From: Octopus vulgaris
Taxonomy: Eukaryota
Direction: 5' to 3'
NCBI GenBank assembly: GCA_951406725.2
Contig: OX597826.1
Location: 48,546,001 to 48,610,000 of the forward strand
Length of the DNA: 64,000 bases
Below are positions 18,673 through 64,000 of the stretch, piece after piece. Position numbers and translations under genes: made by a program. Numbering within the stretch: the first letter of the stretch is position 1; each line of letters opens with the position of its first letter. Below the pieces are notes generated by a model. That model was not told where the DNA came from, ran no database searches, and worked only from the letters and a program-made list of their open reading frames with translations.

Positions 18673-19346
18673 CAGGGGTTCTCAACCATTTTTTATCTAT
18701 GGACCCCTTTGAAATACTATCTTATTGTGGTGGACCCCCTTGGCCATTCAATGTTTAATAACTAGTTAAAACTACAGTTCTATATTCAAGAGATGAGGAA
18801 TTATGTACATTATTTACATTATTTACATTTGACGGGCATATGGCGTAGTGGTTAAGAGCATGGGCTACTAACCGCAAGATTCCGAGTTCGATTCCAAGCA
18901 GTAACCTGAACACTAACAATAATAATAATAATTATAATAATAACAACATCGAAAAATACCTTAGGAATGAGAACCCAGGTTCGAAATTTCCCCAAGACAC
19001 CTGATGAAGGCTGGAGGGTATATCAGCTGAAATGTTGTGTTAACAACAAACAAGATGAGGACAAATATCTGTCAATTGTAAATAATGTAAATAGTTGAAA
19101 CTAGTTTCAAAATTCCTATTTTGTTTTTTATATGGTTACTTGTGTAGGTTGAACTATGTAAAATGTTAGAGAAAGAAACCTAGCTGTTTCTTGCATTGTA
19201 TACCAAAACATACAACTAAAGCAAATTTTTTTCAGGGGTCCTTAAAATACTATTGTGGATTTCCAATTTACTATTTTGTTATGTAAATCCCCAAAAAACT
19301 TATATGGACTCTCAGGGACCATGTAGACCCCAGTTGGGAACCACTG
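18673..19346. mobile_element. hAT (Charlie-like) MITE
   Basis: CAGGGGTTCTCAAC ... GTTGGGAACCACTG TIRs; 8-bp TSD CTTTAGAT/CATTAGAT. Confidence 0.75.
18775..19091 (+). mobile_element. Short Penelope-like element with tRNA-like head and hammerhead motif (family P)
   Basis: Inverted 3' piece (18775-18833), A box TGGCGTAGTGG (18841), B box GAGTTCGATTCC (18884), hammerhead GACAC-CTGATGA-AGGCTG..CAGCT-GAAA-TG-TT-GTGTT (18996-19041); TSD TAGTT(A/G)AAACTA at 18763 and 19092. Confidence 0.75.
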
Positions 19347-44045: not shown

Positions 44046-44728
44046 ATAGAATGGGTTTCTTTCAGTTTCCATCTACCAAATCTACTTACAAGGCTTTGGT
44101 CATCTCAAGGCTAAAAAAAGACATTTACACAATGTGTCATGCAGTGGAACTGAACCCAGAATCATGTAGCTGAGAAGCAAATCTCTTACCACATGACCAC
44201 ATATAGATGAAAAAAAAAAATGATTTCATTTGCTTAATCCTGAAATCAATACGAAACTATGATCAGAAATATTGACTTCTAGTTTCTGGTTTAAATACAA
44301 ACTTATTGAACTAGCTTATGATTAAAACCAATAGATAAGATGATCAATGGGCTCAGTACTAAAACTGCTGAAAACTGATTAAGGTTTATGATAGTGTTTT
44401 ATATTAAGCTGAGATAGTCTTAGTATTGGATCCTTAAAGGTCTATTATCATTATAAGAGTAAATATCGAAAATGGTAGAATAACATCTAATCTAATCTGC
44501 TAAAAGTGTGATGTCTAAATATCATAAATCACTGAAAAGAATAACAAGCTTTTGTGTTACCATTTTTATATTCTACTGCGCTATCATGTTAATAGCATTG
44601 AATTTAATGACATTAAATCAAATTGATTTAATGGTTCTTTCTATGGTACCAATAGATTTGCATTTTAGTATTATCTAAGTGTACTGCTATGTTCTGAGTT
44701 CAAATTCCGCCGAGATTGACTTTGCCTT

Positions 44729-44872
44729 ATTTACATTATTTACATTCGACAGATATTTGTCCTCATCTTGTTTGTTGTTAACATAATGTTTCAGCTGATA
44801 TACCCTCCAGCCTTCTTCAAGTGTCTTGGGGAAATTTCAAACCTGGGTTCTCATTCCTAAGGTATTTTTCGA

Positions 44873-44909
<37 letters not shown>

Positions 44910-45079
44910 GTTATTGTTAGTGTTCATGTTCGAAATTTCCCCAAGACACCTGAAGAAGGCTGGAGGGTATATCAGCCAAAACATTGCGTTAACAACAAAC
45001 AAGATGAGGACAAATATCCGTTGAATGTAAATAATGTAAATAATGTACATAATTCCTCATCTCTTAAATATAGAACTGT
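44729..45079. mobile_element. Family P Penelope-like element, inverted double copy, inserted in SINE B
   Basis: Minus arm 44729-~44925 and plus arm ~44928-45079, each with a hammerhead-like motif; 14-bp TSD ATTGACTTT(G/A)CCTT at 44715 and 45080. Confidence 0.8.
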
Positions 45080-46285
45080 ATTGACTTTACCTTTCATCCT
45101 TTCGAGGTCGATAAATTAAGTACCAGCTGTATACTGGCATCAATCTAATTGACTGGCCCCCTCACCCAAAATTTCATGCCTTGTGTGTAGAAAAGAATAG
45201 ATTTACATTTTAGTATTATCTAAGTGTGCTGCTATGTTCTGAGTTCAAATCCCACCAAGGTCGACTTTGTCTTTCATCCTTTCAGGGTCAATAAATTAAG
45301 TATCAGTGAAACACTCATGACAGTAAGATTGTAGTTTCGATTCTTGGATTGGGTGATGTGTTCTGTTCTAGAGTAAAACACTTCATTTTACTCTGCTGAT
45401 GAAAATTAATACTCCTGTGATGAACTGGCTTCCTGTCCGGGGGGAATATATACATCGTAGAATCCAGAAAACCAGCGTTAAGAAATTACGACTCAGGAAG
45501 GACTGTTGGCCCCATTTTTTGGTTGTTTATCTAAATCTAATTATTTAGATTTTGTATGTGGTTTGCAAGATTCTTTATGTGAATTCGTGTATTGAAGCAT
45601 ATTTTATTGTGTCTGGGGAGAGTCATTCTCCTTTAGTGCCGTATTAATTTAACACCCTCACTAGATTGATTCCCACTCATTTACTTATTTACACAATAAT
45701 CTAAATCTAAGTCACAGGTAAATATTTGCCAAATTTGGATTCTGCTCTTTTCCATACCTTACATGCTTTACTCTATTACAGTGTTATTTTTCTATAACTC
45801 CATTACTCTGTTTCAGTTGTTTGATTGTGGCCATACTGGATGATCTTAGGGAAAGAATTTAGCCATTCATATAAATTCTAAGATTGTCTTTTTTTTAAAA
45901 AAACTAGTCTGGTACTTAATTTTAGCAACTTTAATTATTATTAGTAAGGCAGCAAGTTGTCAAAATTGCTGATACATCAGGCAAAATGCTTTTTTTCTTG
46001 CCAGTCTTTATGTTTTGAGTTCAAATTCTGCCATGGTCAAGTTTAACTTTTTATCCTTTCAGGGTTGATAAAATAAGAAGCAATGAAGTCCTGGGATCAA
46101 CTAATTCAATTCCACTAAAATTGCTGGCCTTTTGCCAAAGTTTGAAACAATTATTATGACAAGTTATAGTTAAGGTGGTGAACTGACCAGATCAGTGGCC
46201 TGCCAGACAAAATGCCTCGCAGCATTTTATCTGTCTTTATGTCCTGAGTTGAAATCACACTGAAGTCAACTTTACCTTTAAGGGT

Positions 46286-47310
46286 CAATAAAATAAGTAC
46301 CAGATAAAATAAGTACCAGATAAAATAAGTACCAAGTGCCAGATAATTACTAATAAGTACCAATAAAATAAGTATCAGATAAAATAAGTACCTGAACTTG
46401 CTAGCCTGGTGCCAAAATGAGTACCAGATAAGAACCAATAAGTACCAATAAAATAAGTACCAGATAAAATAAGTACCTGAAATTGCTAGCCTGGTGCCAA
46501 AATAAGTACCAGATTAGTACCAATAAGTACCAGATAAAATAAGTACCTGAAATTGCTAGCCTGGTGACAAAATGAGTACCAGATAAAATAAGTATCAGAT
46601 AAAATAAGTACCTGAACTTGCTAGCCTGGTGCCAAAATGAGTACCAGATAAGAACCAATAAGTACCAATAAAATAAGTACCAGATAAAATAAGTACCTGA
46701 AATTGCTAGCCTGGTGCCAAAATAAATACCAGATAAAATAAGTACCAGATTAGTACCAATAAGTACCAGATAAAATAAGTACCAAGTGCCAGATAATTAC
46801 TAATAAGTACTAATAAAATAAGTATCAGATAAAATAAGTACCTGAACTTGCTAGCCTGGTGCCAAAATGAGTACCAGATAAGTGCCAAGTACCAGATAAG
46901 TACCAATAAAATAAGTACCAGATAAGTGCCAAGTACCAGATAAGTGCCAAGTACCAGATAAGTACCAATAAGTACCAATAAAATAAGTACCATATAAAAT
47001 AAGTACATGAAACTGCTAGCCTGGTGCCAAAATAAGTACCAGATAAGTACCAACAAGTACCAATAAAATAAGTACCTTAAACTGCTAGCCTGGTGCCAAA
47101 ATAAGTACCAGATAAATTAAGTACCTGAAATTACTAGCCTGGTGCCAAAATGAGTACCAGATAAGTACCAATAAAATAAGTACCAGATAAAATAAGTATC
47201 TGAAATTGCTAGCCTGGTGCCAAAATAAGTACCAGATAAGTACCAATAAGTACCAATAAAATAAGTACCAGATAAATTAAGTACCTGAAATTGCTAGCCT
47301 GGAGCCAAAA
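46286..47310 (+). repeat. Modular minisatellite expanded inside a SINE B copy
   Basis: Shuffled modules CAGATAAAATAAGTAC, CAATAAGTAC, CAGATAAGTAC and CTGAAATTGCTAGCCTGGTGCCAAAATAAGTAC between a SINE B 5' part (~46170-46285) and 3' tail (~47290-47325). Confidence 0.9.
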
Positions 47311-47561
47311 TTTTTAACCATTATTAGCCGTTGTTAAGATAGCAAGCTTGCAGAATTGTTAGCATGTTGGACAAATTGTTTTGTGGCATTTCTCCCACCT
47401 CTTTACATTCAAGTTCAAAATCTGTCAAGGTAAATTTTGCCTTACAGCCTTTTGCAGGGGTGGGGTCAGATAAAATAAGTACCAATCAAAAACTAAGGTC
47501 AATGTAATCAATTCACACCTTCTAAAAAAAATTGCTGTCCTTTTTCCCAAAATGCAAAACA

Positions 47562-49694: not shown

Positions 49695-50115
49695 ATTCTA
49701 TATTTAAGAGATGAGGAATTATGTACATTATTTACATTATTTACATTCGACGAATATTTGTCCTCATCTTGTTTTTTGTTAACACAATGTTTCGGCTGGT
49801 GTACCCTCCAGCCTTCTTCAGGTGTCTTGGGGAAATTTCGAACCTGGGTTTTCATTCCTAAAGTTTTCTTCGATGTTATTGTTGTTGTTGCTGTTCAGGT
49901 CACTGTTTTGAATCGAACTCGGAATCTTGGGGTTAGTAACACGTAATAATAATAATAATAGTAATAATAATAATAATAACAACATCGAAGAATACTTTAT
50001 GAATGAGAACTCAAGTTCGAAATTTCCTCCAAGACACCTGAAGAAGGCTGGAGGGTATATCAACAAACAACCACAAGATGGGGACAAATATCCGTCGAAT
50101 GTAAATAATGTAAAT
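49695..50115. mobile_element. Family P Penelope-like element, inverted double copy
   Basis: Minus arm with intact core GACAC-CTGAAGA-AGGCTG..CAGCC-GAAA-CA-TT-GTGTT (49781-49826); 13-bp TSD AAGAGGTTAAGGG at 49682 and 50116. Confidence 0.8.
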
Positions 50116-50788
50116 AAGAGGTTAAGGGCTTGATAAATGTGTGAGGCCTAGTATAGAATTTGAAATCATTATTAGCTGGCAGAATTGTGTGTGTGTGTGT
50201 ACTTAAATGTATGTTTGTTTGAGTGAGATCTTATTTCTCCTCGCCTTTACGTGTGCAATGATAGCAAACAAAAGGCTCATTTAATTGGTATTGTTTGGTT
50301 CCCTATTTCTGTGTAACCAGACCCAGAATGCTCATTACGCTATAACCTGGAGGATTATAACTTTGTTTAGAAACAAGTGAGGGTTAACGCCAGGAAGGGC
50401 ATCCATCTGTAGAAATCTATGCCCTGATGCAGCTGCTTGTGACCCATGGAAAAGTAAACTTTAAAACATTGACATATGTGTGTGTGTGTGAATTTACATA
50501 CACACGCATGCACATGCAAACACACACACTCACACATACATACACACACGCTGTTTACACGCACACGTGCACACAAAGTCTTCAGGAGAGCAGAAGTATA
50601 CAGAATAATTTACGTAAATAAATTAATAAAATATCAGAGTCAGAAAAACGGAAACTGTTTATTAATAAAAAAAAATCATAGTCAATAAAACTGAAATAAT
50701 TTGAAATAGAATAAGTTAAAATAGAACATATTTATAGCTTGAATTTAGCGCTTTCATCTGCCTATAGACTTCTGCAGATTTAAAATTT

Positions 50789-57428: not shown

Positions 57429-57568
57429 TGTATGTATGAAAACATGTTGATATACATATATAATGGCATGGTTAAGAAGGTCGCTTTGCAATCTCGGGAA
57501 TTTGGGTTCACAGCACATTGGGCAGATATCTGGTATGACTGATATCTTGTGATATCACAAGATATGTT

Positions 57569-57712
57569 CATTATTTACATTATTTACATTCGACGGATGT
57601 TTGTCTTCATCTTGTTTGTTGTTAACACAACATTTTGGCTGATATACCCTCCAGCCTTCTTCAGGTGTCTTGGGGAAATTTTTCGATGTTATTATTATTA
57701 CTACTATTATTA

Positions 57713-57761
<49 letters not shown>

Positions 57762-58173
57762 CATTATAGTTAGTGTTCAGGTCACTGCTTGCAATCGAAC
57801 TCGTAATCTTGGGGTTAGTAGCCTGCGCTCTTAACCACTAAGCAGACCGAGTGCAGATATGAGCAGCATATGGGAAACGGTATTAAGGATGTATAGAAAA
57901 ATATTAGATTTATAAGCCCTAAAATTCACTCTATAATTTCCCACGGGCATATGGCATATGGCGTGGGCTACTAACCCCAAGATTCCGAGTTCAATTCCAA
58001 GCAGTAACCTGAACACTAACAATAATAATAATGGTAATAATAACATCGAAAAATTTTCCCAAGACACCTGAAGAAGGCTGGAGGGTATATCAACTGAAAC
58101 ATTGTTTTAACAACAAACAAGATGAGGACAAATATCTGTCAATTGTAAATAATGTAAATAATGTTTACATAAT
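57569..58173. mobile_element. Family P Penelope-like element, head-to-head inverted pair with tRNA-like heads
   Basis: Minus arm 57569-57840 and plus arm ~57910-58173, both with hammerhead-like motifs; no clear TSD. Confidence 0.75.
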
Positions 58174-60614: not shown

Positions 60615-60950
60615 ATGCACATGACTCAGTGGTTAGAGCACCGGGCTCACAATCACGAGGTAGCGAGTTCGATTCCAGCTGTTGTGTTCTTGAGCAAGAC
60701 ACTTAATTTCACATTGCTCCAGTCCACTCAGCTGTAGAAATGAGTTGCAACGTCACTGGTGCCAAGATGTATTGGCCTTTGCCTTTCCCTTGGACAACAT
60801 CAGTGGCGTGGAGAGGAGAGGCTGGTATGCATTGGTGACTGCTGGTCTTCTGTAAACAATCTTACCCACAGTCGTGCCTTGGAGGGAAACTTTCTAGCTG
60901 CAATAATACCATGGTCATTCATGACCGAAGAAGATCTTTACCCTTACCCT
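60615..60950 (+). mobile_element. SINE family D
   Basis: tgactcagtggttagagc..gagttcgattcc..ttgagcaagacact. Confidence 0.75.
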
Positions 60951-63968: not shown

Positions 63969-64000
63969 CAGTTCTATATTTAAGAGATGAGGAATTATGT
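63969..64000 (-). mobile_element. Start of another family P element (runs off the window)
   Basis: cagttctatatttaagagatgaggaattatgt matches the termini at 18775, 45050-45079 (reverse) and 49695. Confidence 0.7.

Follow-up and report, generated by a model that had tools for sequence, protein, structure and literature searches.

In the Poseidon element of Anolis carolinensis, as described in the available portions of PMC11167929 and PMC8557442, a single ORF encodes an RT with a C-terminal endonuclease, the pseudo-LTR overlaps the start of this ORF, and the hammerhead cut lies downstream of the start codon. Its insertions have two 3' end sites, a tail on one side and an inverted arm, and uncleaved RNA is the template. 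In the accessible part of PMC11167929, this signature is put down to internal initiation at two sites; both strands of the target are cut and extended, and the main template is RNA that has not been cleaved. The octopus element described here resembles anole Poseidon in its ORF, pseudo-LTR, hammerhead position, end sites, tail, inverted arm and probably template. With Sm-alpha and Sj-alpha, the SINE-like retrozymes of Schistosoma, it shares the association, within a repeat a few hundred bases long, of tRNA-derived Pol III sequence with a type I hammerhead; the Schistosoma repeats are, according to the sections available of PMC6765202 and PMC4918200, non-coding tandem repeats freed by ribozyme cleavage. 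Like the minimal hammerheads of metazoan PLEs (PMC4209133, available in part), the octopus motif has a 5-bp helix I, an extra base before helix II, G10.1-C11.1 and a palindromic 15.2-16.2, and occurs mostly as a solo motif. The octopus SINEs tRNA-Core and tRNA-Deu, in the text accessible in PMC8967140, are also comparable in their tRNA-like head, many copies and similar size.

The window analyzed here, a stretch of 64 kb, holds five insertions of one repeat family, namely the stretch 18773–19093 and four relatives. A preliminary description had reported the same ~300-bp unit at five places; all five do belong to one family, but they are not one unit, and both boxes are present only at 18775. 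In this insertion, a TSD of 10 bp with one mismatch (left copy 18763–18772, right copy 19092–19101, both on the plus strand) was read by eye, the TSD script having chosen another 8-mer at this palindromic site. Enclosed by the TSD are an inverted arm on the minus strand (18773–18835), corresponding to the pseudo-LTR 3' end with the Penelope 'tail', and a plus-strand arm. The latter includes a tRNA-derived head with a degenerate cloverleaf (18834–18908; A box 18841–18851, B box 18884–18895), an (AAT/AAC)n linker (18909–18946), and the first codons of the RT-endonuclease ORF (18967–19091; first in-frame ATG at 18967), truncated at the inner 3' end. A minimal type I hammerhead motif (18996–19041, plus strand) has a predicted cut after 19036 and two CpG-decay changes in this copy. 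The A box, the B box and the AAT-type linker recognized earlier in the 18775 copy were all confirmed, the linker being (AAY)n. The regions 18773–18835 and 63969, which had been taken for the start of the unit, both correspond instead to the 3' tail of the element, lying on the minus strand.

Three of the five insertions are two-armed palindromes. The insertion at 44727–45080 is nested in another repeat, lacks the head and has its tail on the plus arm, while that at 49696–50117 has a 13-bp TSD and a minus arm with the tail and only the B box. At 57563–58173 neither arm has a tail, each arm has a damaged head, and no TSD was found. The fifth insertion begins with its tail at 63969–64000 (minus strand) and runs past the window edge; in the corresponding locus (L092, 1–791) the linker holds a fragment of another retroelement. 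A fragment of another abundant retroelement recurs inside the (AAT)n linker (L092, 115–715; L235, 1656–2180; L164, 786–1279), which suggests microsatellite targeting. A different tRNA-headed repeat, 75% like the unit's head and with another body, is located at 60617–60678 (plus strand).

The stretch 57838–57944 (plus strand) is the end of the autonomous element's ORF, comprising the last 25 codons, the stop and a short 3' UTR, and joins the head at 57945. These ~100 extra bases 5' of the head, used as a query, led to loci extending upstream into the endonuclease C-terminus, and, starting from a second odd copy (L083), we reached loci in which the tail passes into the N-terminus of the RT frame. 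RT-centred searches of the genome revealed many copies, which are decayed. The 3' end of the ORF runs into the head in 52 of 56 distinct ends, a count that excludes the 30 loci found using that very stretch, and two of the four misses retain part of the head; the tRNA-derived head is hence integral to the unit, as had been supposed, and not a chance insertion. The tail leads on into the ORF in L144–L162, and core, tail, ORF, head and core follow one another within single arms in L369 and L387. The sequence order is ORF end, a UTR of ~35 nt, head, linker, ATG, hammerhead, two 3' end sites and the rest of the ORF. The RT frame begins at an ATG ten codons upstream of the hammerhead, and its first codons span the motif; when translated, the hammerhead region of the window matches the N-terminus of an 847-aa homologue, P0003 (38% over 48 aa; E value 7e-5). 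The unit can no longer be called non-coding, as the beginning of the RT reading frame occupies it from 18967 on. As to the check proposed earlier, whether autonomous PLE pseudo-LTRs share the 3' ~150 nt, the unit is the element's own pseudo-LTR and its tail continues into the RT ORF.

The majority columns give a frame of 829 codons. No intact copy was found among the 150 scored, the longest natural frame being 569 aa, and the copies are ~6% away from the column majority; because of this divergence and the length of the longest frame, the family looks inactive. The RVT_1 match is above the cut-off in L182 and below it in L181. The ORF's C-terminus contains the motif Y-S-I-P-C-S-C-G..Y-K-G-E-T with histidines further on; the element itself is unmatched by Pfam GIY-YIG, for which precomputed matches exist in the homologues P0069, P0073 and P0096. 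As is characteristic of Penelope/Poseidon, the element has one ORF, which comprises an RT and, C-terminally, a GIY-YIG endonuclease. The Zn-finger-like linker motif, a mark of Neptune/Nematis in the accessible text of PMC8557442, is absent from L181 and present in a 781-aa family, and by the criterion given there the lack of a Neptune-type linker places the element with the Penelope/Poseidon type. To judge from its sequence, the repeat unit is the pseudo-LTR of a Poseidon-type Penelope element, the class being set by the linker criterion rather than by an RT tree. The 781-aa family is a young Neptune-like Penelope family (L061–L072, e.g., G000:C17:42762500-42767500) with many intact 781-aa frames, 95–99% identical, together with a long frame upstream and a hammerhead-like motif of the U3-A8 core variant. 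It was rejected as a partner of the unit, to which it has no similarity, and its hammerhead variant differs.

Unlike anole Poseidon, as far as the latter is described in the sources available, the octopus element has a tRNA-derived head with A and B boxes at the 5' end of its pseudo-LTR, and the 5' ends of copies are piled up there. The boxes, which are those of a tRNA-derived SINE, are conserved in 117 heads save for CpG decay. Comparison of the head with host tRNAs gave local similarity z values of 5.4–7.8 for 7 of 11; the best was Arg-TCT (z 7.8), with others close, and the parent isotype is ambiguous. The 5' end played no part in the choice of 37 arms, of which 23 end at −10 to +3 of the head's first G, 2 at −20 to −11, 9 inside the head, and 3 further upstream. 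Three head-reaching arms from a second random sample end at −41, +7 and +8, none of them in the peak; when the 40 head-reaching arms are pooled, 23 end within 10 bases of the head start and 4 extend more than 20 bases upstream. A short palindrome at the head start inflates the −7 class, and joins could be favoured by this palindrome itself. We infer that a start site at the head, blurred by the palindrome, would best explain the pile-up. It is highly improbable that the sharp boundary instead arose in a long read-through RNA, whether through an RNase P-like cut in the tRNA-like fold or through template switching concentrated at the palindromic start of the head. Such a process would fit the use of the palindrome at many junctions and the scatter of ends from −10 to +3; however, the cloverleaf has been lost though the boxes are intact, palindrome-free joins to the head start exist (L223, L226, L229, L234), and copying is not stopped by stronger downstream hairpins. 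In sequencing-run contigs, whose RNA status is unproven, words are shared with the element under five organism labels, and the element is covered in four runs under three labels; this bears on neither start sites nor expression.

A tRNA-type head between ORF and hammerhead was found in none of 80 related metagenome loci, 27 of which have a hammerhead. In the preliminary description, the combination of Pol III transcription, ribozyme processing and Penelope mobilization was not known to have been described in cephalopods. The pairing of a tRNA with a hammerhead is known in Schistosoma (PMC6765202 and PMC4918200, each available in part); neither a tRNA-headed pseudo-LTR nor a Pol III-transcribed PLE was found in the literature searched, which was mainly open-access; a Dfam or Repbase entry may exist. 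The accessible portions of PMC7229834 and PMC8967140 add nothing on the octopus pseudo-LTR family.

A Pol III start at the head would lead one to expect few T4 runs downstream. On the sense strand of the 2.8-kb unit, T4 sites recur in at most 3 of the 19 covering copies (34 rows); the lack of a shared run is a further difference from anole Poseidon as the available text presents it. The 2800 majority columns contain no T4, with A4 normal at 32. In 25 long copies (47,433 nt, non-independent), 24 T4 runs were observed versus 104 expected, T5 is absent, and 11 copies have no T4. The two longest natural frames alone give 3 versus 3.1 and 1 versus 2.9 (P 0.13), which is not significant. Related elements at 46 loci have T4 in excess (357 vs 236), a single locus being without T4 in the matched part, and over a wider span T4 is present in 38 of 38 relatives; these relatives are 29–45% identical and mutually non-independent, and the T4 result is that of one lineage. 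A fit on 44 of 80 related loci gave a P(0) of 0.0004–0.0009, and two Neptune ORFs from the same genome have 9 T4 each. Of 30 host tRNA genes, 23 show a T4+ run within 40 nt, and in 9 the first run is exactly T4. The corresponding P(0) for the element is 0.024 with a synonymous shuffle under its own codon usage, 0.008 when Phe-adjusted, and 0.005 with a base shuffle; the Phe content of homologues, taken as a proxy for T avoidance, gave an uninformative 0.029 versus 0.034. T3 is also depleted in the element (330 vs 451).

The P(0) of only 0.024 under the element's own codon usage and the low T3 count are what one could adduce for a reading with the same pseudo-LTR in which any Pol III products are short or abortive, Pol II read-through supplies the ORF mRNA, and T4 is absent by chance or composition. 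This is unlikely, given that none of the 38 relatives lacks T4, that between the head and the ORF end there is no T4 to stop Pol III, and that one arm (L394) starts at the head and extends 850 nt into the ORF. As for transcription by Pol III, the missing T4 runs give about an even chance that it also reads the ORF. The element might in that case be an autonomous coding retrotransposon that Pol III transcribes end to end, starting at a tRNA promoter it has captured, with a 2.5-kb ORF cleared of T4 and translated uncapped: a LINE and a SINE in one, shedding tens of thousands of SINE-like solo ends. For this complete reading we would put the chances somewhat below even, and the translation of an uncapped Pol III RNA is its unexplained point.

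The insertions also bear the mark of Penelope/Poseidon, i.e., a pseudo-LTR from partial tandems, an inverted arm, and a one-sided tail of 30–40 nt. Of 57 two-armed insertions, 55 have the tail at one end and not at the other, and 48 have a TSD of at least 7 bp; in the control, TSDs were found in 30 of 36 insertions versus 3.7% of 1260 mismatched pairs. The 3' ends form two groups ~35–45 nt apart. The one-sided tail, the inverted arms and the TSDs bear out the earlier proposal of a Penelope-type mobilization with an inverted end piece. On this comparison of sequences, we consider it probable that a protein-coding Poseidon-type Penelope with a tRNA-derived head has this unit as its pseudo-LTR, and that the short copies, being solo pseudo-LTRs, were likely made from Pol III RNAs begun at the head. 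In the proposed pathway, the RNA would start at the head, pass the tail and enter the ORF. The RT-endonuclease would cut both target strands, and reverse transcription would begin internally, at one site per strand; double-strand cutting and internal initiation have been demonstrated in vitro for anole Poseidon (PMC11167929, in its accessible part). The result would be two head-to-head arms within one TSD, one tailed and one tail-less. Initiation in the first pseudo-LTR of the RNA would give a solo copy ending at the head, initiation in the second, tandem pseudo-LTR would give the ORF-bearing copies, and the usual template would be uncleaved RNA. In L398 (2028) and L145 (1346), ORF sequence is fused straight to the head start, as if the RT had run off the 5' end of one RNA onto another.

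The hammerhead layout given earlier was confirmed, with stem I at 18996–19000/19037–19041, the core at 19001–19007, an extra A, stem II, GAAA at 19029–19032, NN and TT. The inferred ancestral CG after GAAA also holds, since in 205 distinct arms the first position is C in 161 and T in 34, and the second G in 141 and A in 39; CG is the majority, TG and CA are decay products, and the commonest context (76 of the 205 arms) is the intact GAAACGTTG. Six full hammerheads of the window were aligned, and all of them have lost CG. Two subfamilies are split at the core position N7, which is free (T 107, A 92). Both sides change in 6 of 12 pairs in an alignment of 6 window rows and 6 metagenome rows from related elements of other organisms, and 86% of cells are paired versus 14–49% when the alignment is slid, the structure having been drawn from the same sequences. 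The octopus helix II has 5–6 bp rather than the 7–8 bp of metazoan PLE hammerheads in the available text of PMC4209133, from which the motif is otherwise no different. Neither the hammerhead nor the head was matched by ARAGORN or by Rfam, for which one scan covered the best 150 of 336 matches; in cofolding, the lowest-energy state was not the hammerhead dimer. The presence of a minimal dimer-type hammerhead in the pseudo-LTR, as a motif recognized by sequence, is upheld. No purifying selection on the hammerhead after insertion was seen (non-majority 4.4% vs 5.1%), and only 4 of 287 arms, taken from all loci collected and not an unbiased sample, end at the predicted cut. The copies do not support the claim that the unit is processed by a ribozyme. 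Since cleavage would sever the start codon from the ORF, we speculate that the hammerhead is more likely to limit translation than to free monomers.

The unit is present genome-wide at ~43,000 loci (95% interval 22,000–74,000), as estimated from 12 loci in 79 random 10-kb stretches, the stretch adjoining the window being left out; a genome search gave 40 scored matches with 85–100% identity. Nine of the 12 random loci are solo, i.e., without ORF sequence. This predominance would suit a SINE or retrozyme that is independent, with short masters of its own, hammerhead-processed and mobilized in trans by Penelope proteins, as originally proposed, and so would the Pol III plus hammerhead repeats of Schistosoma (PMC6765202, available in part) and certain short head-less tandems with a shared junction, by which non-autonomous masters can arise. 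These tandem units of ~280 nt (core, tail and ~119 nt of ORF) are few and are found at L150:1580, L155:1596 and L157 (minus strand, 1580 and 1856), with one junction common to the three loci and occurring twice in L157; they are possibly a non-autonomous, retrozyme-like derivative, or a microhomology hotspot. The same two haplotypes, however, are found in ORF-linked arms (14 and 12 of 42) and in solo headed arms (34 and 12 of 75), so that the solo copies need no master of their own. Moreover, the head is integral to ORF-bearing copies, the ends fall at the cut in 4 of 287 arms, the loci read show no head-to-tail arrays of headed units, and the anole RNA must reach beyond the tail (PMC11167929, accessible part), into sequence that solo copies do not encode. 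An independent SINE is in our view very unlikely, and the proposal of a non-coding SINE/retrozyme gives way to the pseudo-LTR of an autonomous element. A non-coding lineage separate from its partner, as in tRNA-derived SINEs, was not found, given the shared haplotypes, the integral head and the coding hammerhead region. Neither were head-to-tail arrays with monomer ends set by cleavage, as in non-LTR retrozymes and Sm-alpha, the insertions being inverted pairs. Unlike Sm-alpha and Sj-alpha, the octopus unit belongs to a coding element, inserts as inverted arms, and has ends that ignore the cut site. Unlike tRNA-Core and tRNA-Deu, as described in the available text of PMC8967140, it is without a LINE-type 3' tail, has the Penelope insertion signature, and is continuous with its own ORF. 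Automatic annotation may file the family as a SINE, and part of the 'SINE' annotation in such genomes may be Penelope ends.

With its tRNA-derived head, the pseudo-LTR would mark the 5' end of a Penelope element, and the promoters of this class have barely been studied. Internal initiation in the first pseudo-LTR would offer a simple account of why most Penelope hammerheads are solo. If Pol III reads the whole ORF, the element would be a natural source of a 2.8-kb Pol III messenger, with a bearing on uncapped-RNA translation and on how SINE-like repeats may arise without a separate master.

Other features of the window include a U6 snRNA match at 3422–3526 (plus strand; 87 bits) without the 3' U run, likely a pseudogene, and a near-perfect inverted repeat at 1195–1355, within which 1235–1314 has a sub-threshold match to mir-31 (36.6 bits; gathering 51). 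A degenerate tandem repeat of ~1 kb occupies 46273–47311.
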